From positions 203,569-267,568 of the forward strand of contig BOLA01000001.1 of NCBI GenBank assembly GCA_016861265.1: DNA of 64,000 nt, written 5' to 3'. The notes below the pieces were generated by a model that was given only the letters and a program-made list of their open reading frames with translations, was not told the origin of the DNA and did not search any database. Position numbers and translations under genes: made by a program. Below are positions 5,069-55,591 of the stretch, piece by piece. The stretch's first letter is position 1; every line of letters starts with the position of its first letter. Origin of the DNA: Patescibacteria group bacterium. GTDB lineage: Bacteria > Patescibacteriota > Dojkabacteria > J137.

Positions 5069-5089
5069 TTGACCTCCAGAGGAGGGGTT

Positions 5090-6517: not shown

Positions 6518-6532
6518 GTTGTCTGCCTTGTC

Positions 6533-8233
6533 TTATTGCGCTAACTTGTAGATGTGATAGAGTTCGTTTTCAAAGACCAAGACGTAATGGTCAATGAAAG
6601 ATTGCTGATTCCGAACAGTTGTCCATACACGATCTTCAGCAAAACCGGAGTATGGGCCTCTCATTACAATCCACTCCATCTGATTTGCATATGGAGCGTT
6701 TAGAACTGGTTCCCAAAGTCGATATGTACCCTCGTAAGTTATGTTTCCAAGGTTAATACCGCTTAGGAACTGTAGCTGCTCATTTCCGTAGGCTTCCAAC
6801 AACATTGTCCCGTTATCGTAGTTATCACCCAGCCATTCAGCAGCCTCTATTTGAAGCTGGCTGAACACGTAGGATGATGCACGTTGTGGTTCGATTAGTG
6901 TTGTAATCCCCGGATCCTGAAACAGTGCAAACTGCGAGAAGAGTACACAACCTCCAACAATAACTGCCAGCACTCGGCTTCTCCTAACTAAGTAACCCAC
7001 CATTGGGGCCACAGTCAGAATTATGATGAGTGCAAAGCGAATGTTGTAGAGAGTGTCCTCTGTCTGCATAACCTGCATGGGTCTTTGACCTTTGTAGATC
7101 ATAAACCCGAAGAACGGGATCATCACCAATGGCAGTAACGGAGCAAATGATTCCCTACGCAATCTGGTTGAGACCACGTAAATGAATAGACCTATTACAG
7201 CCAATACAACCACCATGCCAATGGTATCCCAGATCCCCCACCCGTAGGTCAGGAAAGCAACCCTAAGGTTTCCAAACCCGGCTTCTCTTCCCGAAACCCA
7301 ATTGCTGGGTGAGGAATAGGTACCGTTTTGAAACTCCAAAGGGTTACCAAAGATTGTCATATTCCAGACAATCCAGCCTATGACTCCGGCTAGTGCAACA
7401 AAACCCCACTCAGCCAGATGTCCCACTAGGTCCCAGAAGCGCACTCTGTTGCGAAGTAACACGTATGTGTAGATAGCAGCTTCCGCCACCACAATTACCC
7501 ATCCTTCGTAACGGATGGTACACATAATCACGCTTGCTACTCCATTCCAGAAGAGCCACTTATGGTTTGACGGTTCCTTACAAAGTTTCCAGAACGTGTA
7601 CATCGACAGCAATACCCCAAAATACATGGGAATTTCCGTCATTGATGTACTTTGCAGATACAGTACGTTTGGGTTGAGCATCAATACCATCCATGCGATT
7701 ACAGCGGCATATGTGCTATTAGTCAGTTCAAAGACGAACTTGAACATGTAATAGCCCATGACCAAATAGCAGAACATGGATACTGCGATCATTCCCAAGC
7801 CATGCGAGTAAAAGACGTTAGTCCGCAAAACACCCACAGTAAGCAGGTAGAGAGTCGTACAAATACCAATTACCACCCACCGAAACAATACAGTCCAACC
7901 TTTAAGCAGTCGGCGAATTGCAACAATGGACAGAACCAGTCCAAGTGCCAAAAAGATCGATCCGTATATGGTGTTTGACCAGATATCGGAGCAAACCAAT
8001 GGCAGACTTGCCAAATGGGTCAACGGTAGCCATACTGCCCCTAGCTGTGCAAGCCCGGGTGATGTACTATCGCAAACCCTGCGAGCGATCAATAGATGTG
8101 CCTGTGTATCGAAGTGGAGAAATCCCACATCGTTAACAGTCACAAGGGTAAAGCATACTACCGACAGCAGAAATGCAACTGCCATCAGAGTAGGCACGAT
8201 CCTTCTGGGCATTTGCCCAATACCTTCATTCAT
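6533..8233 (-). CDS. polytopic integral membrane protein (about 12-14 TM; possible GT-C-fold glycosyltransferase or polymer export/modification protein)
   Basis: 566 aa with many hydrophobic helices; GGAGG Shine-Dalgarno 8 nt upstream of the ATG; first gene of the island operon. Confidence 0.55.
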   Translation of the reverse strand: MNEGIGQMPRRIVPTLMAVAFLLSVVCFTLVTVNDVGFLHFDTQAHLLIARRVCDSTSPGLAQLGAVWLPLTHLASLPLVCSDIWSNTIYGSIFLALGLVLSIVAIRRLLKGWTVLFRWVVIGICTTLYLLTVGVLRTNVFYSHGLGMIAVSMFCYLVMGYYMFKFVFELTNSTYAAVIAWMVLMLNPNVLYLQSTSMTEIPMYFGVLLSMYTFWKLCKEPSNHKWLFWNGVASVIMCTIRYEGWVIVVAEAAIYTYVLLRNRVRFWDLVGHLAEWGFVALAGVIGWIVWNMTIFGNPLEFQNGTYSSPSNWVSGREAGFGNLRVAFLTYGWGIWDTIGMVVVLAVIGLFIYVVSTRLRRESFAPLLPLVMIPFFGFMIYKGQRPMQVMQTEDTLYNIRFALIIILTVAPMVGYLVRRSRVLAVIVGGCVLFSQFALFQDPGITTLIEPQRASSYVFSQLQIEAAEWLGDNYDNGTMLLEAYGNEQLQFLSGINLGNITYEGTYRLWEPVLNAPYANQMEWIVMRGPYSGFAEDRVWTTVRNQQSFIDHYVLVFENELYHIYKLAQ

Positions 8234-17865: not shown

Positions 17866-20800
17866 TTATGCAGCTAATTTATTAATTTCTTCTTGTAAAG
17901 TAATTGGCAATACTCTTCTTCTTGGTGAAAGACCTCTTACATTCTCCTGATTAAATTTGTGCATGCTTACAATCTCAGCTCTCTTTTCCTTAGGCAATGC
18001 CGAACCTAATTTTGTAATAAAGAAGGTCAATTGCTTTGATATTGATGGGTTTACATACAAGTTAACGTACATTAGAACTCTTGACAAGGCCAATACTAAT
18101 CTATCTTGATCTTCTTCACTACCATTTTTTATTAACTTCTCTATTATTTCAAAGTTAGAGAATAAAATTTCGATTACAGGCTTTATTGCCTCACGAATCT
18201 GCGATGATTTTAATAAATTTACCGAAATTGATGTGGCTACTTTTTGATCTTTATTGCTTACAGCAAAAGGAGATTTCAATTTCTCGAATGCACCAAGCAC
18301 TATTAGACCTGCTGCTTCAATAGACTTTTTCTCACACAAGTCTCGAATTGCTTTAATATCTTTATTGAAAGCATCAAACTTTGCATTACCAGTTAATTGA
18401 GAATAAGATGTAACTCTACTATCTATTTCTTCTAGTATTTCTATATATGTTCTTGATGGTCTAAAGTAAGGCGGTTCAGTTTCAAGTAACTTTTGCATAA
18501 AATCCAAAACCTTCTTAAGATCGATCTCGTCATATCCTCTTTCAACTCCATGAACCAATAAATCAATAAATCTTGGAATCATATCTAGTACTTCAGTCTG
18601 CACCCTAAAGGTTAGTGGAGGATTCATGTTGAATGCATCAATAAATACAATCGAAGCATCAATTGATTTCTTTAGTTTGGTATCTAATTCTGCAACTCTA
18701 TCATTTGTTAGCAATGCTCCTGTTGGATCCACCTCACCGGCTTCGTCTTTAATATCTTCGTAGGCTTGATGGGCAGCGTTTTCTATCTTAACTTGCTGTT
18801 CGACAGTTGCTTTTTCCGCTACAACTGTGTCCACTACATCATAAAAGCCCTTAGCATTAACTCTATTTCGAGTAGCAAGATAGGCCATTATGTAATTTAA
18901 ATTATTAGCGTAATCGTTAGTATTGTTTCGAGTAACAGTATCTCTTAACCCTTCAAACATTTTTCTTGCTCTACCCTTTTTTTCGTTAACTCCCGCAAAT
19001 CTAATTAACTGATCTCTTTGTTCTGCTGGCAGTTGTTGAAATGTTGCACCAATAAAGTTTAATACATCGGCGTTCGCGAATGAATAGTCCACTGAGTCAT
19101 CGGTTTCGGTAGCAAGATCAATTAAGATCTCGTAGCCTGCAGGATCCTGCTTAGACCATAATGTAAGTACTTGAGTACATAGTTTAAATTTAACTCTATT
19201 ACTTACACTATTCCAAATACTCTTATTATCAATTATGAACAAAATAAAATCCTTCTCAGCATCTGATATTTGTAGAAATTTATCAGGATACATAGAATAC
19301 TGGTCAATTGCATACTCAACAATATTTTCAAACTCAGGTTGGGAAGAATAAATATCGAATAAAGGTCTGTTCGTAGAATATAGAGTTACTATCTCTGTTA
19401 AGCACTCCCCTCTTGGGGTAGAAAGTGCCTTGAACTTCTTAGCTAATCTAGATTCATACCATCTCTGCTCTCTTGCTTTTAGTGCGTCTAATCTGACTTC
19501 TATTCCATCTTCAGTCAGTATTTCTTTTTTACTTGCACCATAATTTTCTGATATATCCTCTAATTGATCTAATCTATCCTTCCACATTTCAAGCTTAATA
19601 ACACGAACATGTGGGGGCATAAGTGTTACCAGTTCTACAGAATCTAAAGACAATCTTAGGAAGTCATAGATACTTCTTTCTGTTCCTCTACTAACATCTA
19701 ATTCATCAACGAACTGATATAGTTCTTCAATTAGGTTAGCAACTGTGGCGTATGCTTCTGGATCAGTTTCTACTGCTTTTATAAGGAGTTTTACCGCTAT
19801 AGGATCTTTAATAATATCAGCTAATTTACGTACTCCCTTTTCAATACTTCTTTTGTCCTCACTTTCAACACTTTCTCGAGCTTTTTCTCTCCTTTTTTGA
19901 GCCTTAGTTGGTTCGGAATCAAAAGCAAATAATATTCTATAGTAGATATTCTTCTTTAGATTATTTACCTTTTGCTTCATTCTCTCCGCCTTACCCTCAG
20001 GTCGTAATCTATCAAGCACCAATTCCTTAATTTCTTCTAATTCACTTTCTATTTCCTGAGTTCCAAGTTTCTTTACCAAGTCAATTTGATAAGCTTTTTC
20101 TCTGTAGTATTCAAGCATGGCCGTTTCTCTGAGCAATAGAGTGATGACTAGAGTATCGTTGGCAGAATGGTTCTCAAAGAATTTATCAATAATTGCTTTT
20201 TTTTGTTCCTCAGAAAGTTTAAGTGCCTCTACTAATTCCGCTACTAATTCAATTTTGGCATCCTTATCTTTTTGAAATTCGTAACCATCAGCAGTAAGGT
20301 CTTCTAGATTAACACCTTTTACTTCACCACTATATAGATAGTGCATTAAATTGAATAGGTAGCTATCTTTTGGATCTGTTAAGTATCTTTCAATAAATAG
20401 TTTATAAACTGCAACTCTATCGTCTTTATCAAAGATTGATAGTGGAGCAAATGCTCCAACAGGAACGACCAATCGTACTATTCTCCTTATAGCCTTCTGT
20501 GTATCCTCATTTTGTGAAGTGGCTAATGTTGATTGCAAACCTGCAATTATTCTAGATGTAATACTTTTTAATAATACGTCGGTTAAAACCTCACTGATTA
20601 CAACATTATCTGTTTGTTTTAATCTATCTATGTAGTTTAATATATTAACTTGAATATCAACCCATTCTGTTTGAACAAAGTCAATTCGCAGACTAACTTG
20701 TCCCATGTACTCAACCAATGCGCTTATGTCTTCCTGGTTACCCGAATCTAGCACTCCTTCAATGTAAGGCTCTATGTATACAAAGATTTTTATAAGCTGA

Positions 20801-21804
20801 GCTGAGTTATCAAGTTTACCCGAAATACCCACAAGTTTAGCTACAAATTTAAATCCTCCAATCTTAATGGCAAATTCAATCAAGATTTTCCTATCACTTT
20901 CTGCAGTGGAATCATCTATAATTAAACTTCTCAATTTTGTCTCGAATATATTCTTGTAATGATCAATGTCTAAAGTTTTACCAATTACGGTGTATATTGT
21001 TTCTGCATTTGGTGAGCTTTCAATTCTGGAAATAAATACTATTAGCGTTGATAGCGGAAGACTATCAAGAATTGCCTCTCTTAAGGCGTCAACAATAAAC
21101 TCTGCTAGCCTTCTAGCTTCGATATTCGAAGTTATAATTTCCTTAAAGATTATGGAATATACACCTTCTATAACTGCACTATTTGAATCATCTACAGTTC
21201 TTAGCGTTCTAATAATATTGTGTAAATTATCTGCTCTTAGGCAACTATCTACAATTATCCTTGGCAATGCTGCAGATATTGCGTTTTTAGTGTCAGGATT
21301 AGTACCTAGTTGACTATCAACATTGTTAACCAGAGTTCCTAATATCTTGGTGTTATTACCACGAACAGTTTTTACCTGAAATTGCACAAAGATATCTGTT
21401 AGTACACTTACAAAAGTTGATTCGAAGTTCGGATTAGTTAATAGGACCTGGCAAAGCGGAGTTATTAGATTTGTATTGATAAAATCTGCAAGTTCTTCAC
21501 CTGGATAATCCAGATCAGCCATAAAAGCCGAAAGATTCTTTAATTTGTCTAATGCAGCTTGAACCTTATCAGGATCGCCTGAGCTTAATTCTTCCACAAT
21601 AATACTAAGATACTTTACTGCCGTTTCGTAGTTCTCTGCTTCACTCGGTTCAATAGGTTCATTTGGTTCTAAAGCAGCTTCAGGTTCATCTGCGCCAAAG
21701 CCTACAGGTAAAGCCATTGGCTCTGTCTTTACCGCCTGAATGGTCGGCTGACTTTCATCGGTTGTTTCTTCTGGATCTGGAGTAAAATTTTCTAGTGCGG
21801 CCAT
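17866..21804 (-). CDS. giant (1312 aa) acidic, largely alpha-helical protein of unknown function
   Basis: uninterrupted ORF at host-like composition, in an operon between sufB and the 161-aa ORF. Confidence 0.7.
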   Translation of the reverse strand: MAALENFTPDPEETTDESQPTIQAVKTEPMALPVGFGADEPEAALEPNEPIEPSEAENYETAVKYLSIIVEELSSGDPDKVQAALDKLKNLSAFMADLDYPGEELADFINTNLITPLCQVLLTNPNFESTFVSVLTDIFVQFQVKTVRGNNTKILGTLVNNVDSQLGTNPDTKNAISAALPRIIVDSCLRADNLHNIIRTLRTVDDSNSAVIEGVYSIIFKEIITSNIEARRLAEFIVDALREAILDSLPLSTLIVFISRIESSPNAETIYTVIGKTLDIDHYKNIFETKLRSLIIDDSTAESDRKILIEFAIKIGGFKFVAKLVGISGKLDNSAQLIKIFVYIEPYIEGVLDSGNQEDISALVEYMGQVSLRIDFVQTEWVDIQVNILNYIDRLKQTDNVVISEVLTDVLLKSITSRIIAGLQSTLATSQNEDTQKAIRRIVRLVVPVGAFAPLSIFDKDDRVAVYKLFIERYLTDPKDSYLFNLMHYLYSGEVKGVNLEDLTADGYEFQKDKDAKIELVAELVEALKLSEEQKKAIIDKFFENHSANDTLVITLLLRETAMLEYYREKAYQIDLVKKLGTQEIESELEEIKELVLDRLRPEGKAERMKQKVNNLKKNIYYRILFAFDSEPTKAQKRREKARESVESEDKRSIEKGVRKLADIIKDPIAVKLLIKAVETDPEAYATVANLIEELYQFVDELDVSRGTERSIYDFLRLSLDSVELVTLMPPHVRVIKLEMWKDRLDQLEDISENYGASKKEILTEDGIEVRLDALKAREQRWYESRLAKKFKALSTPRGECLTEIVTLYSTNRPLFDIYSSQPEFENIVEYAIDQYSMYPDKFLQISDAEKDFILFIIDNKSIWNSVSNRVKFKLCTQVLTLWSKQDPAGYEILIDLATETDDSVDYSFANADVLNFIGATFQQLPAEQRDQLIRFAGVNEKKGRARKMFEGLRDTVTRNNTNDYANNLNYIMAYLATRNRVNAKGFYDVVDTVVAEKATVEQQVKIENAAHQAYEDIKDEAGEVDPTGALLTNDRVAELDTKLKKSIDASIVFIDAFNMNPPLTFRVQTEVLDMIPRFIDLLVHGVERGYDEIDLKKVLDFMQKLLETEPPYFRPSRTYIEILEEIDSRVTSYSQLTGNAKFDAFNKDIKAIRDLCEKKSIEAAGLIVLGAFEKLKSPFAVSNKDQKVATSISVNLLKSSQIREAIKPVIEILFSNFEIIEKLIKNGSEEDQDRLVLALSRVLMYVNLYVNPSISKQLTFFITKLGSALPKEKRAEIVSMHKFNQENVRGLSPRRRVLPITLQEEINKLAA

Positions 21805-30128: not shown

Positions 30129-30581
30129 TTAAAGAGAAGCGTATTTATCAACAACTTTTTCTATCTCATTTATGTTTACTTCAGAATTGCCTATTACCTT
30201 TCCGTCTTGAACAAAAAGAACTACAGGTGCATACGAAGTAGACATGCTGTTAGCTAATTCACGATTAACTTCGATATCAGTTTCAATGAATTTAATATCT
30301 GAATATTTTTGTGCCGATAATTTGTATAAATTGGACATTGTCTGACAAGGTCCACACCAGCTTGAAGTAAAGAAGATGAAGTTTTTTCCAGATTCAATTT
30401 TATCTGCGATTTTACCTTCAAGTTTTTCGTAATTTGCTGGGATCTCTTTTACTACCGATGATGCAACAATATCTATTTTTAGAATTCCTGTTGCCAATGA
30501 TATTGCCACAATAAATAATCCTAACGCACTCACAATTGCAAAACTTTTTAGTGCAAACTTTCTTTTCTTTTTGGGTAACAT
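30129..30581 (-). CDS. membrane-anchored thioredoxin-family thiol-disulfide oxidoreductase
   Basis: N-terminal TM anchor; WCGPCQ active site. Confidence 0.75.
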   Translation of the reverse strand: MLPKKKRKFALKSFAIVSALGLFIVAISLATGILKIDIVASSVVKEIPANYEKLEGKIADKIESGKNFIFFTSSWCGPCQTMSNLYKLSAQKYSDIKFIETDIEVNRELANSMSTSYAPVVLFVQDGKVIGNSEVNINEIEKVVDKYASL

Positions 30582-35505: not shown

Positions 35506-36183
35506 TTAGTTTGAAGACACAGTCTGAAGTTCGTAGCTGCCTGGATTTATTATTCCAAATTTATTCAAAGGCCAGAGTCGGAAAATTACCTTACCTTGCA
35601 ACCACTCACGCTTTATAAAACCAATGTATCTGGAATCATTGCTTACTGCTCTATTATCCCCCATTACAAAGAATACATCTTGGTCTATTATTTTGTACCC
35701 ATTTACATCGGTCTCTTCCATTTGAACCTTATATTCTTGTCCTTCTTTTAAATTACCTGACTTTGTAAAAGTATTGTCTGGCAAATAATCTTCTACAAGA
35801 AGTTGCCCGTTAACGTATATTCTACCCTTTTCAATTTTAATTGTATCTCCTGGTAATCCGATTATTCTTTTTATCAAGGAACTACCCATGGTAGGCTTAA
35901 AGAAGACAATAACATCTCCTCTGTTATAGCCTAGGCCAAGTGACTTACCAATATCTGATTTGCTGAACCATTGCGGTAATCTATTTGTATACACTCTTTC
36001 GGTATTGTAAAACGTTGGCTCCATTGATGGTCCGTCTACCTCGCTAGGGGTTACAATGCTAAAAATTATAAATGAAAAAATAATAGCCAAAGTAACTGAT
36101 TGCAAGAAATCAATTAAGGCAGATTTTTCCTTTTTTTCACTGAATTCAGATTCAGCCTTATTTCCTTTGAATGGATTCTTCAT
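35506..36183 (-). CDS. lepB: signal peptidase I (paralog 2)
   Basis: S26 motifs DGPSMEPTF (catalytic Ser box), RIIGLPGD and GDNRAVSNDSRY. Confidence 0.85.
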   Translation of the reverse strand: MKNPFKGNKAESEFSEKKEKSALIDFLQSVTLAIIFSFIIFSIVTPSEVDGPSMEPTFYNTERVYTNRLPQWFSKSDIGKSLGLGYNRGDVIVFFKPTMGSSLIKRIIGLPGDTIKIEKGRIYVNGQLLVEDYLPDNTFTKSGNLKEGQEYKVQMEETDVNGYKIIDQDVFFVMGDNRAVSNDSRYIGFIKREWLQGKVIFRLWPLNKFGIINPGSYELQTVSSN

Positions 36184-36800
36184 TATTGATTATAGTTTAT
36201 TGTACCTGTCGGAATTAATCCGAATGTATCGAGTGGAAAGACTCTCAAGAAGACTTTACCCTTTAACCAGTCATTTCTAATAAAACCTAGGTATCTGGAA
36301 TCGTAACTCACAGGTCTATTGTCCCCCATCACAAAAACCGCACCTGGTGGGACTATCTGTGCTTCTCCTCCATCTTCTAAAAAATCACCTCCTTTAGTAT
36401 ACAATGCTGGAGGTAAATAGTCTTCAGAAATTAGTTGATCATTTAAGTAGACCTGACCGTCTCGGATTGCGATTTTATCTCCTGGCAAGGCAACTATTCT
36501 TTTAATAAATGCCGGGTAGTTTGGGATTTGCAGAACTACAACATCGCCTCTGTGGTATTCAAATCCGGTTGTTTTACCTATAGGAGTACCATTAAGCCAT
36601 TGAACCACTCTATTTGCGAAGTAAATTTGCTTAGTATAAAAATTAGGTTCCATCGATGGACCATCGACCTCGTTTGGGGAAATCACGAATAGATATAGAA
36701 TTATCCCAATCGATGTAAGTATTACCAATGATTGTAGTATTATAATAAACCAATTTTTTGGCTTTGGAGCAGGTTTTTCAAAGAAAGGATTTCCTTCCAT
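36183..36800 (-). CDS. lepB: signal peptidase I (paralog 1)
   Basis: DGPSMEPNF, RIVALPGD, GDNRPVSYDSRY; directly upstream of the second paralog. Confidence 0.85.
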   Translation of the reverse strand: MEGNPFFEKPAPKPKNWFIIILQSLVILTSIGIILYLFVISPNEVDGPSMEPNFYTKQIYFANRVVQWLNGTPIGKTTGFEYHRGDVVVLQIPNYPAFIKRIVALPGDKIAIRDGQVYLNDQLISEDYLPPALYTKGGDFLEDGGEAQIVPPGAVFVMGDNRPVSYDSRYLGFIRNDWLKGKVFLRVFPLDTFGLIPTGTINYNQ

Positions 36801-41063: not shown

Positions 41064-41318
41064 ATGCCACAAATTCATCCCGATGAAGAGACAAAAAATA
41101 GAATAAAAAACCTAAGTATTGTAGGTAAGGCATTAGGTGAGGAAACAAACGAAAACAAAGGAACTACTAACGCCTTTTTAGCAAAGACTTCACTTAATGA
41201 GTTCGAAGCTGGAATAAAAAAACTAGACTTAGATCCTCAAAGCATGGATGGAATGCAGCATTTAATAAGGCTATTGCATAAATTAATTGATCAGAAAATG
41301 GGACAAATATCTGCATGA
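41064..41318 (+). CDS. small hypothetical protein (overlaps the response regulator by 4 nt)
   Basis: 84-aa ORF translationally coupled to the response regulator. Confidence 0.4.
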   Translation: MPQIHPDEETKNRIKNLSIVGKALGEETNENKGTTNAFLAKTSLNEFEAGIKKLDLDPQSMDGMQHLIRLLHKLIDQKMGQISA

Positions 41319-41986
41319 ACATATTGGTTGTTGAAGATGAAAATTCAATTAGAGAAATAGAGACTGCTTATCTAAAAAAAGCTGGTTTTAATGTATTCGA
41401 GGCTGAAAATGGAGCAAAAGCTTTAAGTCTATTCGAGAAATTAAATATTGAACTGGTAGTGTTAGACATAAATATACCAGGTATCGACGGCATTACCGTA
41501 TGTAAAAGAATTCGTTCCAAATCAAATATACCTATAATTATGGTTACGGCCAGGGTTGAAGATCAAGATGAACTAATTGGACTCGAGTGCGGAGCCGATG
41601 ACTACCTTAAGAAACCATTTAATCCTGCAATATTGGTAGCCAGAGTGAAATCATTATTAAAGAGAACTTCAAATGCCGTTTTAGCTAACAAGTATATGCA
41701 AATAGACGAAGAAAAGCAGCAGGTAAAAGTAATGGAAAAACTAATTGAACTAACAACAACCGAATTTAATATACTCACCACCTTATTTAAAAATCCTGGG
41801 AAGGTATTTGATAGAGAGAACATAATTCTAAAAGCCTACAATGATTTTGGGAGTAGCGATATTTTAGATAGAACAGTCGATGTTCATATAAAAAATATTA
41901 GAAAAAAGCTAAAGGTAACAGAAGACCTACCTGAATTTATACTTACTGTAATTGGTAAGGGCTATAAATTTAATGATTCATTATGA
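41315..41986 (+). CDS. OmpR/PhoB-family response regulator
   Basis: receiver motifs (VVEDE ... VLDINIPGIDG ... K) and a winged-helix C-terminus. Confidence 0.9.
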   Translation: MNILVVEDENSIREIETAYLKKAGFNVFEAENGAKALSLFEKLNIELVVLDINIPGIDGITVCKRIRSKSNIPIIMVTARVEDQDELIGLECGADDYLKKPFNPAILVARVKSLLKRTSNAVLANKYMQIDEEKQQVKVMEKLIELTTTEFNILTTLFKNPGKVFDRENIILKAYNDFGSSDILDRTVDVHIKNIRKKLKVTEDLPEFILTVIGKGYKFNDSL

Positions 41987-43092
41987 ATATAAAATCGGGA
42001 GTTAAAAGAGTAACCTCAAAAACTTCAGTTAAAATATTTGCCGGTATTTTTCTTATTACTGCTATTGTACTTGCATATATTAGTATATTTGCAATTACCA
42101 CAGCTCAGAGCGAGTTCCAAAGTGCAACAATACGTTTTATTGACGGAAATCTGTTCCTAGTAAAACAATCTCCCGTAGCACCAGTTGAAGTAATCAGGAA
42201 ACAATTTAATGATTCACTATTTAATACATTATTTTTTGCTGGGGCATTAGGACTACTTATGTCTCTAATAGCAGGAACAATCTTCTCGATAATAATTACC
42301 CAGCCTTTAAGAGAATTAAGAGTTGGAATTGAGAATTTAAAGAAAAGTAGATTCAAAGATAAGCTGGTCAAGACTGGTGAAAGCGAGTTTGACCAGGTAA
42401 TAGAAGAATTTAACGACCTTGCAACTGAATTGGAATACCAAGAAATACTAAGGAAGGATCTGATCTCTGATGTGGCTCACGAGTTAAAAACACCAATTAC
42501 CGCTTTAAGTGGGCAAATACAAGGCATGATAGACGGAGTCTTTGAACCTGATGCAAAGAGATTAAATACTACCCTTGAGGAAGTTCAAAGATTGAACAAT
42601 CTTATTGATATGTTGTACGAATACACCAAACTACGCACCAAGCTACCAAACAAGAAGGATGAAGAGGTTAATCTACACGATCTTGTAGAGGAAGCAAGAA
42701 CAACCATAGGAAGTAAGTTAGATGATAATAAAATTAAATTGGTAAATAATATTGAAGAAAAGGAGGTCATAAAGACAGATAAATACTTAATGCATAGGGT
42801 TTTAATAAATATTATTGATAATGCAGTAAAATATTCTAAGGGTACTGAAATTGTAATAAATAGGGACGGTAATAAAATAACCATTAATGACAACGGAATT
42901 GGAATTCCTAAAGAAGATATTAAAAAGATTTTTGAAAGGTTTTATAGAGTTGAGAAATCTCGAAATCGATCAACCGGCGGACTTGGTTTGGGACTTGCGA
43001 TAGTTAAGGAAATAATTGAGGTGCTAGGAGGAGATATTGAGGCAAAAAATAATGAGAATGGTAAAGGTGTAAGTTTTATTATTAAAATTTAG
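41983..43092 (+). CDS. sensor histidine kinase
   Basis: two N-terminal TMs, H-box HELKTPIT, N-box NAVKYS, G1 DNGIGIP, G2 GGLGLGLAIVK. Confidence 0.9.
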   Translation: MNIKSGVKRVTSKTSVKIFAGIFLITAIVLAYISIFAITTAQSEFQSATIRFIDGNLFLVKQSPVAPVEVIRKQFNDSLFNTLFFAGALGLLMSLIAGTIFSIIITQPLRELRVGIENLKKSRFKDKLVKTGESEFDQVIEEFNDLATELEYQEILRKDLISDVAHELKTPITALSGQIQGMIDGVFEPDAKRLNTTLEEVQRLNNLIDMLYEYTKLRTKLPNKKDEEVNLHDLVEEARTTIGSKLDDNKIKLVNNIEEKEVIKTDKYLMHRVLINIIDNAVKYSKGTEIVINRDGNKITINDNGIGIPKEDIKKIFERFYRVEKSRNRSTGGLGLGLAIVKEIIEVLGGDIEAKNNENGKGVSFIIKI

Positions 43093-47199: not shown

Positions 47200-48516
47200 T
47201 TAATTTTTAATAGTAACACTAATAGTTCCCGTTTGATTGTCAGGAGTTTTATCTACCCATAATTTGTAATCTGTTTTCTTGCTTAATTCTAATCTGTATT
47301 TTGCTGTTCCATTCTCAAAGGAAAGTAAATCTACTTTAACAAGTGTAGCTCCGGCAGTTGTGGCTCCAGTTTTTGCCTCAATATCATCCAGCGTAAGAGA
47401 AGTCTTGTTATTTGCAGTCATAACTTCCTGGGTTAAGTTAGAAACCTCTACCATTAAGTACGTTTTGCCTGCAGTTGTTGTATCGTAATATGCAGTAGCA
47501 TTTGGTACATTATTATCTCCAATTACACCGGTTTGTGCCCATGAAAATTCATATGAACTTCCATAATTATCAAAATAATAAACATTATGTGCAAGCTTAT
47601 TGTCTGTAACTGAGCTAACTACGTATTGTTTATTCTGAGAAAATTCATTATTCAAATGAGGTGCCTTTGGTTTATCTACATTAGTAGTTGAGTTGTTTGT
47701 GGTTGTCGAATTATTGGTAGTTGTAGTCGTGTTTGTAGTTGTTGTAGGCGTGGTTGTTGTTTCTGGTTTAGCTAACTCTGTATTAGTTTTAAAGTCAAAT
47801 ACAAGGTTATCTCCATCTTTTTTAACAGAATACTTAACACCATCTTTAAACATAACTACAAAGCTATTGTTAGTCGAAACGTATCTTATTTCTGAAACAA
47901 TATCGTTTATAGTCTCATCTTCTTTTAATGTTTCTGCAACACTGCCTAGTGTTTCAAATGCTATGGTTAATTTATTTCCTACTGAATCAAAATTTACTGT
48001 AGTTTTTGGTAATTTTTTATCCGAAGTATTTAAATCGAAAGTTAATCTAGCAAATGTTGCATATCTTAAATAAGAGATCTTATCTAGAGATGTCTGCTCT
48101 TCTGTCGCAGTGGAGTCTCCTAAAGTAACAATTGCTGAATCAACATAATCTGCGTTTTTAACTACATTTACCGCAGAAGAATCTGCTAAAGGTGATACCG
48201 AAACAATATATGCACTAGAAATAGTTTCTGTTGTAGTATTAGTTGTATTTGTTTCGTTGGTAGTACTATTCTGATTCATCACAGAATTCCTTACTAATAA
48301 TGCAGCTACTACACCGATTACAATAATAACTGCAATAAATATAATAATTCGCAATGAATTTCCGTCACCTTCCATATCTCGTATTTCAGTGAATCGGGTT
48401 CTATCCAGCTTAGCTGGATCGACAGTACTTGTTCGTACCGGTCTTGCTGCCAGCAATGGTGATTCCTCTATCATAGAGTCATCCATTGGCATTTCTTTCT
48501 TTCGAGGTGCCATCAT
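47200..48516 (-). CDS. membrane-anchored surface protein with a Thr/Asn-rich low-complexity linker
   Basis: N-terminal TM; TTTPTTTTNTTTTTNNSTTTNNSTTN tract. Confidence 0.55.
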   Translation of the reverse strand: MMAPRKKEMPMDDSMIEESPLLAARPVRTSTVDPAKLDRTRFTEIRDMEGDGNSLRIIIFIAVIIVIGVVAALLVRNSVMNQNSTTNETNTTNTTTETISSAYIVSVSPLADSSAVNVVKNADYVDSAIVTLGDSTATEEQTSLDKISYLRYATFARLTFDLNTSDKKLPKTTVNFDSVGNKLTIAFETLGSVAETLKEDETINDIVSEIRYVSTNNSFVVMFKDGVKYSVKKDGDNLVFDFKTNTELAKPETTTTPTTTTNTTTTTNNSTTTNNSTTNVDKPKAPHLNNEFSQNKQYVVSSVTDNKLAHNVYYFDNYGSSYEFSWAQTGVIGDNNVPNATAYYDTTTAGKTYLMVEVSNLTQEVMTANNKTSLTLDDIEAKTGATTAGATLVKVDLLSFENGTAKYRLELSKKTDYKLWVDKTPDNQTGTISVTIKN

Positions 48517-49365: not shown

Positions 49366-49532
49366 TTTTTATAATTTTAAACAGATAATTTTAGCAATAA
49401 ATCGAGTTTTAGCCCAATTTATATAAATACTACATGAGTAATAAGTTCTGCAACCCTTTATAGATCTATTTAGGGCTCTTTGACACGTCTTATAATTTCT
49501 GCAATACTGTGAAGAGTTTAAACTAATAATAA

Positions 49533-50699
49533 ATGACTAAGAATAGAAAACTGCTAATAGCAATTCTTATTATTGCCACTATAGTATTGGCTGGAATAAG
49601 CATAGTAATTAGTACGGCAATTAATAATAATAACCTTCAAAGCCAGACTGGAGCACAGACCAATCCAATTCTTGCCAACTGCAATAGCTCTACCAATACT
49701 TGTACCATACCATCGGGAGTATGTAACCCATCTAAGGTTTATGTCCACTTTTGCAGTGAACTGAAAAAAGATAACGAAAAGTGTGTGTCTACTAATCCAA
49801 TCGAAATACCAGTGAGTCCAGTGGCCTCCGGAAGTGCAGTAAATTTAAATGACTACCTTGGTAACGTAACTTGTGGAACAGTACAAATGTATCTTGAGCT
49901 TGAGAATTCAGGAGTAAACTCACTAGGGGCATGCGGCACAACTGTAAAGAAGTTTTCAGCAGCTTGCGGAGCTGGAACAAATACACCTGTATCGTTCCCA
50001 GCTTCATTTCCAAATGGAACAAACAACACTGGTACTAACACAGGAACAAATACTAATACCGGAAATAATACAAATAATAATGGGACCACCCAATTGGCTG
50101 ACCCTCAATTTAGAATTACAAATTCATATGCTGCGACCTGCGAAGCTTCTGGGGACGCTCTGTTAAAATATACAATCAGTATTAGTAATATTAGTACAGT
50201 TAGCGGAACAATTACTAAAGTGGAAGAAGTCATTGATACAAGTTTAATTTCTAATGGAATCATTCCAACTAATGTAAGTAATAACGGAACGACTGCAAGC
50301 AATAAAATTACATGGGCAGAAACTTCAGCAGAAAGAACGTATAATGCTAACCAAACAAAGACACTAAACTACGAAATTCGAATTCCTAAAGCCAAATTAG
50401 CAACATTTCAAAATGGAACAAGTTCAAACGCCACTGTAACATACAATACAAGCAACACCACTGGCAATACAAATACATTCGCATTACTTTCAAAACATTC
50501 ATGCGTAATTCAGACAACAAATACAAATACACCTAGTCAAAACACTAATACACTGCCTAATACTGCACTTGTCGATGATTTTAAGCTATTACTAATTGGT
50601 GCAGCGTTCATATTAGTTGCAATTCTGATTTTTAGATTTCAAATTGGAGAGGATATGGTAGCAAATTTACTAGGAAGCAAATATAGAAGAAAAAATTAA
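49533..50699 (+). CDS. surface protein, paralog A: signal anchor, Cys-containing N-domain, Asn/Thr-rich repeat-like region, C-terminal LPNTA motif plus TM plus basic tail
   Basis: N-terminal KLLIAILIIATIVLAGISIV; C-terminal LPNTALVDDFKLLLIGAAFILVAILIFRFQ...RRKN. Confidence 0.6.
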   Translation: MTKNRKLLIAILIIATIVLAGISIVISTAINNNNLQSQTGAQTNPILANCNSSTNTCTIPSGVCNPSKVYVHFCSELKKDNEKCVSTNPIEIPVSPVASGSAVNLNDYLGNVTCGTVQMYLELENSGVNSLGACGTTVKKFSAACGAGTNTPVSFPASFPNGTNNTGTNTGTNTNTGNNTNNNGTTQLADPQFRITNSYAATCEASGDALLKYTISISNISTVSGTITKVEEVIDTSLISNGIIPTNVSNNGTTASNKITWAETSAERTYNANQTKTLNYEIRIPKAKLATFQNGTSSNATVTYNTSNTTGNTNTFALLSKHSCVIQTTNTNTPSQNTNTLPNTALVDDFKLLLIGAAFILVAILIFRFQIGEDMVANLLGSKYRRKN

Positions 50700-50756
50700 T
50701 ACTTCAAATTGACATACCTTATAAATTTTGAAATACTGACTTAAATTAACTTTACA

Positions 50757-53090
50757 GTGGACCAACCTATGTCGAACAGAAAAAAGATTACCTTAGCAAT
50801 ATTGATTTTTCTTACTGCGATTCTCGCAGGTGTAAGTATTTATGTAACTGTAAAGTTACAAGAAAGCCAGGCTCCCACCGAAACAGGAGCATTTACTGGT
50901 GCTGGATTTACTAATTGTTGCGGTACCGGAATTGGTTGTTCGGGTGGAGGTTCTACCTGTCCTGCACATAAATGTAGCGGAACAAGTTGTAGTGGTTCGG
51001 CTGTAAAAATGTTTAAGTGTACTGGAAGACATAATGAATGTGGAGGTGGAGGTGCTACACCATTCTGGGAAAACAATGGATTCACAGGTGGAGAATCTGT
51101 TCCTACTGGAGAATGCGGAATTACTGTACAAATCGATGTGTTTAATAGTGCATCATACGGTAGCGGTATGATTGACTACATTGTTTACTACACTGGGGAT
51201 TGTAATCAAACTACTCCAAAATATAAATGTAGCAATAACTCTTGCGTAAGAGACGATGCAAATGGAACATATACAAGTTCAAATTGTAATAATCAATGTA
51301 GTGCACCTAAGAAAGTTGCATGCGGAGAAAGATGCAATACGGATGCAGATTGTAAAGGAGCTGCAAATGGAGGAACAACAGTTTGTAGAGATGAAGGTGG
51401 TGGTGTAAAAAAATGTGCAAATGTATTCTGCCCTGTGGGAAAAACAATACCTGGAGCAAACTGTGATTGTTCGGCAGGAAGAGTCTGCGGACAAACATGC
51501 AATGCTAGCGTAGGTTTATGTGCAGATGGAAAATCGACTTGTAGATACATAGTTGGTCCATCATGTACAACCTCAAGACCTAATGTTGCAGATACTACCT
51601 ATTGCGTACCGACATCTGGAGCTGGTGCCAGCCAATTAACTACTGCAAAATGTGTAGACAGAGATCAATACAATAGTTATGTGCTATTAAATGGACAAAA
51701 TCCAACACCTGCACAAATTCAACAATTATGTAATTTAACAATACAAACTACTTGCTATAAATGTACTGACCCTACAAATGATGGAAATACTTGTACTAGT
51801 CAAACAGTAAGCGGAACATCTTGTCCTACAGGATGGACTACAAATTCAGTTTGTTCGGCAGCTGCTCCTGGCGGTGCATGTCCTGTCGAAATACCAAAGA
51901 TTACATGTTATCGATGTACAACTGGAACATTAGATGGTAATGCCTGTGAAAATCAGCAATTTGATGGAACATCTTGCCCAACAGGCTGGACTAATAACTC
52001 AAATTGCGGTGCTGCAGCTACAGGTGGCGCATGTCCTGTCGAGACTCCTACAGTAAGTGCTGCTGCTGCTTGTGTTAGTAATACTAATCAAGTAACAGTT
52101 ACATGGAATGCTGTAACTGGTGACAATAGTCAATATGTAGTAGATATTAGTGATTCAAACACATTTGCAACAAATTTTTATCATAAAGCAGTAACATCTG
52201 GTACAACTACAACAGCACCTAATGGATTTACTGCTGCTACTGGCGGTACTGGAGCTCCATTAACAACACTTGACCCTGCAAAGACTTACTATGTAAGAGT
52301 TGCTTATACTGCAATAAATAATTTATATAGTAATACAGCTACAGTATCTACATTAACTTGTACTGAACCCACAATTCAATGTTATAGATGTACAGTAGGT
52401 GCAACAGATGCAAATGCCTGTGAAAATCAACAATTCAACGGAACATCTTGCCCAACGGGTTGGACTTCGAATTCAAACTGTGCTGCTGCAGCCACGGGAG
52501 GTGCTTGCCCTGTAGAAGTAGCTTGCGGTGCAACTTGTAACGATACAAATAATTTATGTCCTCAAGGTCATACTTGTAATGCAGGAGTGTGTAAGCTTAA
52601 CACTTGCTTAACACCAGGGAATTGTTCCGATAATACATGTACGCCAACTGTCCCTGTTTGCGGATCAACATGTTCAACAAATGCCCAGTGTCCAAATAAT
52701 CATAGTTGTACTGCGGGTAAGTGTGTACTAAACGGATGCACAAGTTCTACATGTACAAATGGTTGTGTACCGTTATGTGGCGGTCCATGCGGAACAAACA
52801 ATGATTGTCCAAATAATCATAGTTGTACTGCCGGTAAATGTGTACTAAACGGATGTACAGCAACAACTTGTACAAATGGTTGTAGTGTAATTCCAGTAAT
52901 TCCTGAGACTGCAATTGAAGATGACGCTAGATTATTACTAATAGGAGCTCTATTTATAATCGGAGGTTACCTATCAATGAAATTTGGATTAGGAAGTAAA
53001 ACTAATTTCTTAACAAATATGTATAGTAGTATGACATCTAGCTATGAAGATAAGGCTGAAAGAAAATTGAAAGAAAAAGCTGAGAAGTAA
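50757..53090 (+). CDS. large Cys-rich modular surface protein, paralog B: 3x 46-aa six-Cys repeat, FN3-like insert, 2x 26-aa Cys repeat, C-terminal IPETA motif plus TM plus basic tail
   Basis: N-terminal anchor nearly identical to paralog A; nucleotide-level direct repeats inside the gene; C-terminal IPETAIEDDARLLLIGALFIIGGYLSMKFG. Confidence 0.7.
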   Translation: MDQPMSNRKKITLAILIFLTAILAGVSIYVTVKLQESQAPTETGAFTGAGFTNCCGTGIGCSGGGSTCPAHKCSGTSCSGSAVKMFKCTGRHNECGGGGATPFWENNGFTGGESVPTGECGITVQIDVFNSASYGSGMIDYIVYYTGDCNQTTPKYKCSNNSCVRDDANGTYTSSNCNNQCSAPKKVACGERCNTDADCKGAANGGTTVCRDEGGGVKKCANVFCPVGKTIPGANCDCSAGRVCGQTCNASVGLCADGKSTCRYIVGPSCTTSRPNVADTTYCVPTSGAGASQLTTAKCVDRDQYNSYVLLNGQNPTPAQIQQLCNLTIQTTCYKCTDPTNDGNTCTSQTVSGTSCPTGWTTNSVCSAAAPGGACPVEIPKITCYRCTTGTLDGNACENQQFDGTSCPTGWTNNSNCGAAATGGACPVETPTVSAAAACVSNTNQVTVTWNAVTGDNSQYVVDISDSNTFATNFYHKAVTSGTTTTAPNGFTAATGGTGAPLTTLDPAKTYYVRVAYTAINNLYSNTATVSTLTCTEPTIQCYRCTVGATDANACENQQFNGTSCPTGWTSNSNCAAAATGGACPVEVACGATCNDTNNLCPQGHTCNAGVCKLNTCLTPGNCSDNTCTPTVPVCGSTCSTNAQCPNNHSCTAGKCVLNGCTSSTCTNGCVPLCGGPCGTNNDCPNNHSCTAGKCVLNGCTATTCTNGCSVIPVIPETAIEDDARLLLIGALFIIGGYLSMKFGLGSKTNFLTNMYSSMTSSYEDKAERKLKEKAEK
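51753..52518 (+). repeat. three copies of a 138-nt (46-aa) intragenic module, C[YK][KR]CT..G..D.NACENQQF.GTSCPTGWT.NS.C.AAA.GGACPVE
   Basis: copies at about 51753-51890, 51906-52043 and 52381-52518, roughly 80-85% nucleotide identity by eye. Confidence 0.75.
52689..52883 (+). repeat. two copies of a 78-nt (26-aa) module, CPNNHSCTAGKCVLNGCT..TCTNGC
   Basis: 52689-52766 and 52806-52883, near-identical. Confidence 0.75.
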
Positions 53091-53094
53091 AACT

Positions 53095-53119
53095 AAACCC
53101 TCCGAAAGGAGGGTTTTTT
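53095..53119. terminator. strong bidirectional rho-independent terminator
   Basis: AAA-CCCTCC-GAAA-GGAGGG-TTTTTT; the same stem as the 33927 terminator in the opposite orientation. Confidence 0.9.
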
Positions 53120-53593: not shown

Positions 53594-55591
53594 CTAATAT
53601 TTTATCACGGGTTTACCAAATAAATTTATCTTACTTAACTTCTTTTTTAATGACTTGTGAATTGCCTTCCTAGCCCTAATGACTTCTGTAATTAGTACAA
53701 TCAAAATAACTAAATAACCAAGTAATATTAGATAAGTTCTCGATTCATCAGTTGGGTACTGCTTAGGCAATAACGAACTGTCCTTTTGAGGGAATGAAGT
53801 CGGATAACTTACTGCCATGAATTCCGAAAGCACGTTTGGAAAGTAATATTCATTGGCAATGACTCTGAATGCGCCTCTATAATAGTCAACTACCCCTATT
53901 ATATTTAGTATTGTGCCCTTTTTAAGCTCTATTAAATTTGCTGGACCATAAAAATAAACACTAAAAGTGTCATTGCTTAACCTCACCCTTACTCTATTCG
54001 AATAAACCTGATCTACTACTGCAGAAATGGCTACAAGTTTACCGATATCACTTGTCTCGGGATTAAACAAATTTAAAGCTACTGGTGCAGGGTCTATATA
54101 ATCGATTATCTCAATATTAGCAGGATTAATTTCAATATTTTTAGCACCATTTTTAGTTACAACTTTAGCCTTAATTAGCGAGAATGTATTTAATAAATCT
54201 CGATCGAGCATTGTAGTTAATTTTGCTTTTATTCTCATGGTGTTATCTTCAAGGAATGCATATTTATCGACTGAACCAATTATATTTGCCTTGAGCATAA
54301 ATTCAGTTCCTCCCTGTAAGGAATTAATATCCAAAATAGTATAGAACGGAAATTCAAGATTGTTCTTTGAATTTACAAAACGATTTTCTCCCTTTGGAGT
54401 CGGAGACATTAAAATAAAAGTTTCTTCTGAAAATACTCCATTCTCAAATTTCCTACCAACGGATTGAGACGTACTAACTTGTGTATAAGAGAATTTATTG
54501 ATCTGATTACCGTTTATATCAAATAAATAAATCGAATCTCCGGAATTATTTAAGCTTATTGTAAGATCCTCTTCGTAAACTACATAGTACTCCCTTGGAG
54601 CGATTGTTACATCGGGCAGAAGCGATTTCCGATTAGTTACACCAGTGGATGTTTTTTCTTCTATTACATAATCTTTTAGATTAATAGAATGAGAATCATT
54701 ATTATAAATTTCAATCCACTCGTCGTCTCCACTTTCAGGACTCGGGTAAACTTCAGTAATAACAACTTTATTTGTAATATTGTTTTGAATATTTATCCTC
54801 ATACTTTCAGAATTTATTGTTTGGTCATCGTATTTTAATTCTAATTTAACTGAATCTGAGTAGACTGTATTAAACTTATGAGGTGAACTAATTGGATTAT
54901 TATTCTTATCTGTCCATTTTTCGGATATAGGAGATTGAGTTATGGTAGGAATAAATCTAAAGTAGATATCCTTACCTATGAATGATGATAATGTATCGGT
55001 CCATACCACTGAGTCTAGTGAAAATTCGATTCTCGGAGGATTTATTGGGATAACTGTATAAGAAATAGGAATATTAAAACAGGTGCTTATACTAACTGAA
55101 TTGTATAGCCCAACCGTGTTGTAAATGGAGCTCAATAAGTTTCCACACAAAGGTCCATCTAATTCCCAAGCCACACCCTCTTTTGAATCTCCATAGCTTA
55201 ATTCATAAACTAATACTCCATTGTTAAATAACTGTAATTTTCCATAATCATTGAAAAGAGCAAGTTTTCCATTCCCAATAGAAATACCATTACTTATTTG
55301 TAGGGTAGTCAAGTCTTCTGCTATAACAAAATACGAATTGGGATTTATTTGGCTATCTGGAATAATAATTTTCTTACTGCTACCACTCTGAGAAGTATTT
55401 ATAAAATAGGCATTAACTAATTGAGCTGCCGAACTGCTTGTATTATAAATTTCAATGTATTCTTTTCCCGTGTCAGTACCTACTGCATCTGGCAACAATT
55501 CATTAATAATTAGATTAGTGTCAGCACTTAAATGTATAGAAAAAAGATAAGGGATTAAAATAAAAATAGAAAAAAGAAAGGTAGCCTTCAT
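53594..55591 (-). CDS. secreted protein with two lamin-tail domains (LTD) and a C-terminal TM anchor
   Basis: signal peptide; LIINELLPDAVGTDTGKEYIEIYN and VVITEVYPSPESGDDEWIEIYNN LTD signatures; C-terminal YPTDESRTYLILLGYLVILIVLI followed by a basic tail. Confidence 0.65.
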   Translation of the reverse strand: MKATFLFSIFILIPYLFSIHLSADTNLIINELLPDAVGTDTGKEYIEIYNTSSSAAQLVNAYFINTSQSGSSKKIIIPDSQINPNSYFVIAEDLTTLQISNGISIGNGKLALFNDYGKLQLFNNGVLVYELSYGDSKEGVAWELDGPLCGNLLSSIYNTVGLYNSVSISTCFNIPISYTVIPINPPRIEFSLDSVVWTDTLSSFIGKDIYFRFIPTITQSPISEKWTDKNNNPISSPHKFNTVYSDSVKLELKYDDQTINSESMRINIQNNITNKVVITEVYPSPESGDDEWIEIYNNDSHSINLKDYVIEEKTSTGVTNRKSLLPDVTIAPREYYVVYEEDLTISLNNSGDSIYLFDINGNQINKFSYTQVSTSQSVGRKFENGVFSEETFILMSPTPKGENRFVNSKNNLEFPFYTILDINSLQGGTEFMLKANIIGSVDKYAFLEDNTMRIKAKLTTMLDRDLLNTFSLIKAKVVTKNGAKNIEINPANIEIIDYIDPAPVALNLFNPETSDIGKLVAISAVVDQVYSNRVRVRLSNDTFSVYFYGPANLIELKKGTILNIIGVVDYYRGAFRVIANEYYFPNVLSEFMAVSYPTSFPQKDSSLLPKQYPTDESRTYLILLGYLVILIVLITEVIRARKAIHKSLKKKLSKINLFGKPVIKY

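Follow-up and report, generated by a model that had tools for sequence, protein, structure and literature searches.

The window examined here is a stretch of 64,000 nucleotides (nt) from a Patescibacteria group bacterium of the Dojkabacteria lineage (assembly GCA_016861265.1, contig BOLA01000001.1, positions 203,569 to 267,568 of the forward strand). Between positions 49,533 and 53,090 of the window two adjacent genes code for proteins which we term A and B. Both proteins start with similar leaders and end with a common C-terminal tail consisting of a pentapeptide of the type LPxTA, an acidic pair, a hydrophobic helix and a basic segment. This tail is the subject of the present report. It is probably a lineage-specific version of the LPXTG-type sorting signal which is recognized by sortases. 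The coordinates of the features are collected in Table 1.

The likeness of A and B is located at the two ends. By BLASTP the tails align with 16 identities in 32 positions (E = 5e-8), and when the profiles of the two ortholog families are compared with each other, 76 columns at the N-terminus align (probability 97%, E = 2.4e-11). The common N-terminal part, which comprises the leader and the first Cys motif, is therefore more than a hydrophobic anchor. An earlier reading made from the letters of this DNA and its open reading frames (ORFs), henceforth the sequence-only reading, had described similar leaders and tripartite tails in A and B and the architecture of a sortase cell-wall sorting signal. 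All strings quoted there are present, and so are the pentapeptide, the hydrophobic helix and the basic tail. Its further statement that the passengers between the ends are completely different needs to be amended: about 50 residues past the leader, with the first Cys motif, are homologous, and the remainder is indeed unrelated. In a six-frame scan of the window the tail motif is confined to the ORFs of A and B.

The pentapeptide of A sits 48 residues from the C-terminus, and L341, P342 and T344 are unchanged in all 13 orthologs aligned. Twelve orthologs with 48-99% identity all possess L-P-x-T-[ASG], the helix and F[RK]-x-x-I-G; P0045, a distant ortholog with 33% identity over the full length, has LPNTG combined with a long tail. 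The AlphaFold model of A is of low confidence (mean predicted local distance difference test, pLDDT, of 56), with residues 190-320 reaching about 80 and forming a beta-sandwich. Foldseek with this model returned generic immunoglobulin (Ig)-like matches (EbpB basal pilin, Cna, ACE19, integrins, transglutaminase) at a TM-score of about 0.2. Because of this pLDDT and these generic matches, which indicate just an Ig-like beta-sandwich, no membership of A in a pilin or adhesin family is claimed. A weak DUF4349 match in A was below cut-off and was not used.

For B, the program-listed ORF opens at GTG 50757 (MDQPMSNRKK) and has 777 amino acids (aa). The start is probably ATG 50769, because all orthologs begin with MSNRKK; P0013 is likewise 773 aa long. 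The 45-aa Cys modules are present in the B orthologs, too. A weak fn3 match in B (E = 0.0022) was below cut-off and was not used. IPETA sits 63 residues from the C-terminus, and P712 and T714 are unchanged across 12 sequences of the B family. The B orthologs and paralogs (P0013-P0023, P0030) carry the same tail, including versions with LPVTG, LPNTA and LPNTS.

The N-terminal segments of A and B consist of a basic n-region and a hydrophobic stretch of 20-22 residues, long enough for a signal anchor. In A, a conserved QTGA/Q may mark the position at which the leader is cleaved. Leaders of the type M..R[RK]KI..ILL.LT..LAG.S...QAP...A occur in most members of the tail family described below, of which one, P0052, has a textbook cleavable leader. 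A type IV pilin leader was considered and rejected, as a G-F-T-L-x-E site is absent.

Table 1. Genes, signals and protein segments at the A/B locus (positions in the window).
Feature	Position	Strand	Remarks
Promoter-like site 5' of A	49480..49508	+	TTGACA, 17-nt spacer, TG-n-AATACT; 10/12 consensus match with extended -10 TG; consensus match only
Protein A	49533..50699	+	388 aa; leader, small Cys-containing N-domain, T/N-rich linker, Ig-like beta-sandwich, short sorting tail
A leader	49551..49610	+	LLIAILIIATIVLAGISIVI; N-terminal hydrophobic segment aa 7-26 after basic MTKNRK; Sec leader or signal anchor
A pentapeptide LPNTA	50553..50567	+	aa 341-345; putative sortase cleavage between T344 and A345
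A acidic pair	50574..50579	+	D348-D349; part of family consensus
A hydrophobic helix	50586..50633	+	LLLIGAAFILVAILIF; 16 residues, aa 352-367; fifth-position G nearly invariant across family
A cytoplasmic tail	50634..50696	+	RFQIGEDMVANLLGSKYRRKN; 21 aa, 5 K/R; juxtamembrane [RK]-F-x-I-G kept; no [FY]E-basic end
Promoter-like site 5' of B	50709..50737	+	TTGACA, 17-nt spacer, TG-n-AATACT; consensus match only
Protein B	50769..53090	+	773 aa from ATG 50769; leader, Cys-rich modular ectodomain (74 Cys), FN3-like region, long sorting tail
B leader	50787..50852	+	ITLAILIFLTAILAGVSIYVTV; hydrophobic segment aa 7-28, then conserved LQESQAP..TGA
B three 45-aa Cys modules	51753-51887, 51906-52040, 52380-52514 (span 51753..52514)	+	CY[KR]CT..CPTGW..NS.C..GGACPV; regular expression on translation; flank FN3-like region
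B three ~27-aa modules	52524-52607, 52659-52739, 52776-52856 (span 52524..52856)	+	CG..C..CP..H.C..G.C.LN.C; from translation
B pentapeptide IPETA	52899..52913	+	aa 711-715; putative cleavage between T714 and A715
B acidic pair	52920..52925	+	D718-D719; part of family consensus
B hydrophobic helix	52932..52979	+	LLLIGALFIIGGYLSM; 16 residues, aa 722-737; from translation
B cytoplasmic extension	52980..53087	+	KFGLGSKTNFLTNMYSSMTSSYEDKAERKLKEKAEK; 36 residues, terminating in YEDKAERKLKEKAEK; conserved [FY]E-basic end at 53043-53087
Hairpin terminator between B and convergent YgjP-like gene	53095..53116	.	bidirectional; 9-bp stem, 5 GC pairs, T-runs on both strands

A family of tails on unrelated proteins

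A tail profile of 48 positions was searched against 1.84 billion representative proteins. At E <= 1e-3 it retrieved 35 hits. In 34 of them the match is C-terminal, in proteins of 163-1289 aa; P0037 is a spurious match which is made up of repeated hydrophobic stretches. The passengers are mostly unannotated, with DUF11 in four and DUF4215 in two. The carriers belong to Dojkabacteria, to other metagenomic contigs and to two metagenome-assembled genomes (MAGs) of Candidatus Saccharibacteria. A profile built from a gappy alignment of the full tails had lost sensitivity and retrieved one fragment only. Similarly, a back-translated IPNTGI.DD pattern met three loci in genomes and four in metagenomes, too few for a test of neighbourhood enrichment.

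The consensus was counted over 35 non-redundant tails. Pro at position 2 and Thr at position 4 are present in 35/35. Position 1 is occupied by I (19), L (15) or V (1), position 5 by A (15), G (12) or S (8), and position 6 mostly by I (25), V (6) or L (3). The two residues of the acidic pair are Asp in 22/35 and 26/35, respectively. The hydrophobic helix of 15-18 residues contains a near-invariant Gly and begins 8-13 residues past the first motif residue in 35/35. It is followed by K/R and then by [FY]-x-[ILFV]-G, and the cytoplasmic tail of 17-55 residues has 5-17 K/R versus 2-10 D/E. Canonical motifs occur among the orthologs, i.e., LPVTG in P0030, LPNTG in P0004 and P0045, and IPNTG in many more. 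Outside of Pro, Thr and the post-Thr residue the tails are 25-40% identical, and passengers as well as helix residues vary freely. The invariance of Pro and Thr in such surroundings is the pattern to be expected of an enzyme recognition site and not of a plain anchor. We read the tails as sortase-type signals because the invariant Pro and Thr, together with a small residue after Thr, are the footprint of sortase recognition and cleavage.

The pairing of A and B recurs at a distance. In two distant metagenomic contigs an A-like gene (about 400 aa) stands ahead of a Cys-rich gene of the B type (about 770-810 aa), and both products are tailed (L019, 1146-4726; L022, 596-4378). The tails of the L022 pair share about 78% identity (IPNTAIFDDERAN...). 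A four-paralog cluster at L020 (8760-16370) comprises a short tail, a long tail, no tail and a long tail, in this order. The short-tailed paralog of 413 aa has [IL]PNT[GA]I.D with a classical short tail beside two long-tailed proteins, and the same combination is found in a Saccharibacteria MAG protein (...QIPNTGIFDDGGLAILPLAIGLLLVVVGARLRGEAKKGKP; L007). Tails from one contig resemble each other and mostly agree in the residue after Thr (A/A in the window, in L001 and in L022, G/G in L019). In this small sample the agreement fits one enzyme specificity per organism; gene conversion could have the same effect.

The sequence-only reading had proposed a family with variable passengers and had named confinement of the motif to these two genes as a sign of a simple recent duplication. 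The former is borne out by 34 further C-terminal matches in diverse proteins, and the motif is evidently not confined to A and B. This bears on the possibility that the common tail goes back to a recent tandem duplication, or is a chance resemblance, and has no sorting function. The fact that the window has only two carriers and that these are adjacent is in agreement with it. Yet A and B show no relationship to each other along most of their sequence, the separate ortholog series each keep the tail down to 33-48% identity, and the matches in diverse proteins refute it; we regard it as exceedingly improbable.

Curated models point in the same direction as the consensus. Among 45 tails, TIGR01167 matches 13 (best E = 1.8e-5), PF00746 matches 7 (best E = 4.6e-5) and NF053819, a sortase-substrate subfamily, matches 10. 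Models of LPXTG anchors are the only curated models which match the tails recurrently. Further, the A ortholog MBE0573473.1 from Candidatus Dojkabacteria is named 'LPXTG cell wall anchor domain-containing protein' by NCBI.

Our reading, which we consider probable, is that A and B belong to the surface proteins which a bacterium of the Candidate Phyla Radiation (CPR) exports by Sec, and that they are equipped with a lineage-specific LPXTG-type sorting signal and served by a sortase encoded elsewhere. It starts from what is directly observed, i.e., the motif architecture, its conservation across unrelated passengers, the overlap with curated LPXTG models and the taxonomic setting. From these we infer a sortase in this genome, the cleavage site, the linkage to the wall and the removal of the N-terminal leader.

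The cytoplasmic extension and the search for a sortase

Past the helix B carries a long cytoplasmic extension (SSYEDKAERKLKEKAEK), as does the distant A ortholog P0045. Among the long tails, 28 are non-redundant, and their part behind the helix measures 34-55 residues. An [FY]E motif lies within the cytoplasmic extension in 25 of these 28, and in 17 of the 25 it is positioned 13-18 residues from the C-terminal end. The typical end is (P)[FY]EE..hE..h.KK.KK. Composition-preserving shuffles gave a mean of 7.4 +/- 2.2 for the [FY]E motif, and 0 of 2000 reached 25. Models in Pfam and NCBIfam that cover the extension were not found. A and its close orthologs have, to judge from the alignments, lost the [FY]E-basic extension. 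The sequence-only reading had overlooked this long, conserved part of the B-type tails, which is their only atypical feature.

Tentatively, and with considerable doubt, one may view the extension as a second functional module. It comprises the juxtamembrane [YF][KR]-x-x-G, then an amphipathic stretch and, at the end, a (P)[FY]E-x3-E-x2-basic helix, and could dock the precursor, or the C-peptide which stays in the membrane after cleavage, to a cytoplasmic partner. Should this apply, docking would link the way in which host-contact proteins are displayed on the surface with localisation, quality control or signalling within the cell, and the tail would be a bipartite sorting/signalling element specific to CPR bacteria, without a described counterpart.

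The extension also raises the question whether the helix is cleaved at all. As a permanent anchor it would render A and B type I or doubly anchored membrane proteins, the cytoplasmic tail would bind an intracellular partner, and [LI]PxT[GAS] would be a stalk element or the relic of a sortase signal. A disposable stop-transfer segment needs no long extension with an [FY]E-basic end conserved beyond chance, and the C-terminal helices of Saccharibacteria pilus proteins have been read as membrane anchors (bioRxiv 10.64898/2026.03.03.709456). However, a permanent anchor leaves the invariant Pro and Thr and the small-residue rule unexplained in tails which are otherwise so divergent. Moreover, A and its close orthologs keep LPxT[ASG] without the cytoplasmic motif, and the same motif is found with classical short basic tails. 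On these grounds we consider permanent anchoring unlikely, though of all alternatives to sorting it is the one to be taken most seriously.

The sortase-type reading has to face several points which weigh against it, foremost the enzyme itself. No sortase was detected in the window by Pfam analysis of 47 ORFs, by an active-site regular expression and by inspection of unannotated ORFs; here the sequence-only reading, which had recognized no sortase, exosortase or rhombosortase gene, agrees with the Pfam and motif scans. The sole loose match to an active site ([TS][LIV].[TS]C) is SISTC at residue 170 of the neighbouring lamin-tail-domain (LTD) protein, not a credible sortase. In the flanks of the related loci L001-L019 (about 222 kb) a motif scan was negative, and so was phmmer with S. 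aureus SrtA as query against all ORFs of these 19 loci and of the window. The precomputed Pfam gene tables of the contigs examined, including those of later loci, list no sortase either; altogether the related loci covered amount to about 330 kb. In the literature searched we found no biochemical data which point to sortase activity in a CPR bacterium. A and B themselves match neither TIGR01167 nor PF00746 and remain below every curated cut-off; the best related match for A is to NF053819, with 15.7 bits versus a cut-off of 47. With 17-55 residues and a conserved motif at the end, the cytoplasmic tails far exceed the length known from textbook sorting signals. Finally, the N-terminal hydrophobic segment of 20-22 residues could be an uncleaved anchor.

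In favor of a sortase, a sortase family is present in more than half of CPR genomes (PMC6744442), and sortases and predicted sorted proteins were described in WWE3 and TM7 (PMC3812714). Outside Microgenomates the detection of sortase is patchy (PMC6744442). The supplements of Meheust 2019 contain no sortase prevalence for Dojkabacteria. This patchiness, and the lack of a sortase near any locus examined, can be counted in favor of permanent anchoring. The lack of a sortase near the loci also fits a single housekeeping sortase encoded elsewhere in a genome of about 1 Mb. As none was found in the window or the related loci, the link to a sortase is one which we infer.

Equally, since no sortase has been placed in the same genome, the tail might be the substrate of another enzyme, namely a CPR-specific intramembrane or juxtamembrane protease or transpeptidase akin to exosortase, archaeosortase, rhombosortase or myxosortase, which would recognize [LI]PxT[GAS]IxDD plus the helix. 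The I-x-DD, the fixed helix of 16 residues with an invariant Gly and the [YF][KR]-x-x-G exceed the description in the LPXTG models, and these models match only a minority of the tails. Nevertheless, the motif is inside the known range of sortases (LPxTG, LPxTA). Models for PEP-CTERM, GlyGly-CTERM, PGF-CTERM and MYXO-CTERM match neither A nor B nor any of the 45 tails even at E <= 10, and a signal of the PEP-CTERM/GlyGly-CTERM type was accordingly rejected. In the neighbourhoods examined no conserved candidate enzyme gene lies beside the tail genes; what is syntenic there is PheT, the 440-aa unknown, the ABC ATPase, YgjP and the LTD protein. Processing by such an enzyme thus appears quite improbable.

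With sortase-mediated sorting as the preferred reading, the course of events may be envisaged as follows. The N-terminal leader would take the protein through Sec. The 16-residue helix and the basic juxtamembrane residues would stop transfer, with [L/I]PxT-A coming to rest directly outside the membrane. Cleavage between T and A (G or S in relatives) would then be the task of a housekeeping sortase with its gene elsewhere in the genome. This enzyme would also move the ectodomain onto a peptidoglycan precursor, whereas helix and cytoplasmic tail would remain in the membrane as a C-peptide. The tail points to a sortase specificity of [IL]PxT[GAS]-I-x-DD. Members of the CPR/Patescibacteria live attached to other microbial cells, and it is probably their surface proteins that make contact with the host. 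By means of the sorting tail, candidates for surface display can be listed at little cost in Dojkabacteria, Saccharibacteria and relatives, most of the members being devoid of a Pfam/NCBIfam annotation.

Genomic setting

The window has a GC content of about 34% and carries the housekeeping genes of a reduced genome (PheT, ProS, ThrS, SufB/C, RecO, two S26 signal peptidases and RNase P RNA). The order PheT, a 440-aa unknown, a SufC-like ATPase, A, B, a YgjP-like gene and an LTD protein is kept in relatives, including a 234-kb contig and GCA_030834985.1. NCBI assigns the label Candidatus Dojkabacteria (WS6) to members of the 90%-identity clusters of P0012 (A homolog, 48% identity to the window protein) and P0018 (B homolog, 63%), and WS6 genomes are listed in the taxonomy under names which give a GC content of 33-39%. 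These data place the window in the CPR/Patescibacteria, most likely in Dojkabacteria. The A ortholog P0078, from the 234-kb contig (ERZ795108 NODE_51, L001), is deposited in NCBI as the 'Candidatus Brocadiaceae bacterium' protein CAG0943313.1. Because of its Dojkabacteria-type synteny this contig is probably of CPR origin and was binned into an anammox MAG by mistake.

The promoter-like elements ahead of A and B are nearly identical, both having CTTATAA in the spacer and lying 25-32 bp 5' of the start codons. A and B thus seem to possess duplicated promoters which would drive each gene separately, and not to form a simple operon.

On the minus strand at 47200-48516 lies the gene of a T/N-rich protein of 438 aa which has a membrane anchor at its N-terminus and matches no model in Pfam/NCBIfam; relatives have it at the same place, between PheT and the ABC ATPase. 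On the other side, at 53594-55591 (minus strand), a 665-aa protein has an N-terminal signal, two lamin-tail domains and, at the C-terminus, a helix with a basic tail, and adjoins B in relatives, too. It was considered as a third member of the tail family and rejected, since the LPxT motif is absent despite the helix and the basic tail; probably it is a surface protein with a plain membrane anchor.

More remote from A and B are tandem genes for signal peptidase I (S26) at 35506-36183 and 36183-36800 (minus strand), notable in a reduced genome; they bear on the question whether the unusually long leaders of the tail family are cleaved. A 150-aa thioredoxin-fold protein adjoining an ABC-2 transporter (30129-30581, minus strand) could be an extracytoplasmic disulfide oxidoreductase, of relevance for the ectodomain of B with its 74 Cys. 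The region 4001-8000 is a GC-rich island (0.46-0.47 versus about 0.34 elsewhere) with a GH113-like glycoside hydrolase, a family-2 glycosyltransferase and a weak PMT-like membrane glycosyltransferase, and may represent horizontally acquired envelope/glycan genes. The largest ORF of the window, with 1312 aa, is at 17866-21804 (minus strand).

Comparison with known systems

The closest known system is the LPXTG signal as described by TIGR01167 and PF00746. The tails have in common with it a pentapeptide with invariant Pro and Thr, a hydrophobic helix, a basic tail, the location at the extreme C-terminus, varied passengers and the occurrence on proteins which are presumably secreted. The differences are as follows. 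In the tail family I is as common as L at position 1, and at position 5 A or S is as common as G; behind the motif there is a conserved I-x-D-D; and the cytoplasmic part has 17-55 instead of about 5-10 residues, with most members ending in a conserved [FY]E-basic helix. The NF058670 model for LPxTATN matches the LPxTA-plus-helix region weakly in 12/45 tails. With about 14 bits versus a cut-off of 32 (14.1 for the A tail, none for B), and with A-L-V or A-I-E in the place of A-T-N, A and B are not members of this family.

In Gram-positive cocci, signal peptides of the YSIRK/GS type pair with LPXTG. The tail family likewise combines a distinctive conserved leader with a C-terminal signal on otherwise unrelated surface proteins, yet the leader sequence itself, M..R[RK]KI..ILL.LT..LAG.S...QAP...A, is a different one.

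The sequence-only reading had called the motif non-canonical. This is overstated in view of the orthologs with LPNTG and LPVTG, of the matches of LPXTG models to part of the family, of the NCBI label and of a precedent in Bacillus. LPNTA is an experimentally cleaved sortase motif in BasH and BasI of B. anthracis, the substrates of the class D sortase SrtC (PMC3208642). This precedent shows that Ala at position 5 is compatible with sortase cleavage; A has exactly LPNTA, and B has IPETA. The Bacillus substrates differ in that they belong to a sporulation-linked system with a dedicated sortase, and past the pentapeptide there is no sequence relationship. A sortase gene, of class D or any other kind, was not seen within 10 kb of any tail-family member examined.

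An informative fragment left in the membrane after sortase cleavage also has a precedent. According to the summary in PMC11326707, the membrane-retained C-peptide of LPXTG adhesins is sensed by the SGO_1180 two-component system of Streptococcus gordonii. These C-peptides are short and, in contrast to the B-type tails, have no conserved cytoplasmic domain. The window contains a two-component system at 41315-43092. Compared with all these systems, the cytoplasmic extension is the only unusual element and possibly a new one, whereas the remainder probably extends a known Gram-positive mechanism to a group of bacteria already suspected of it.

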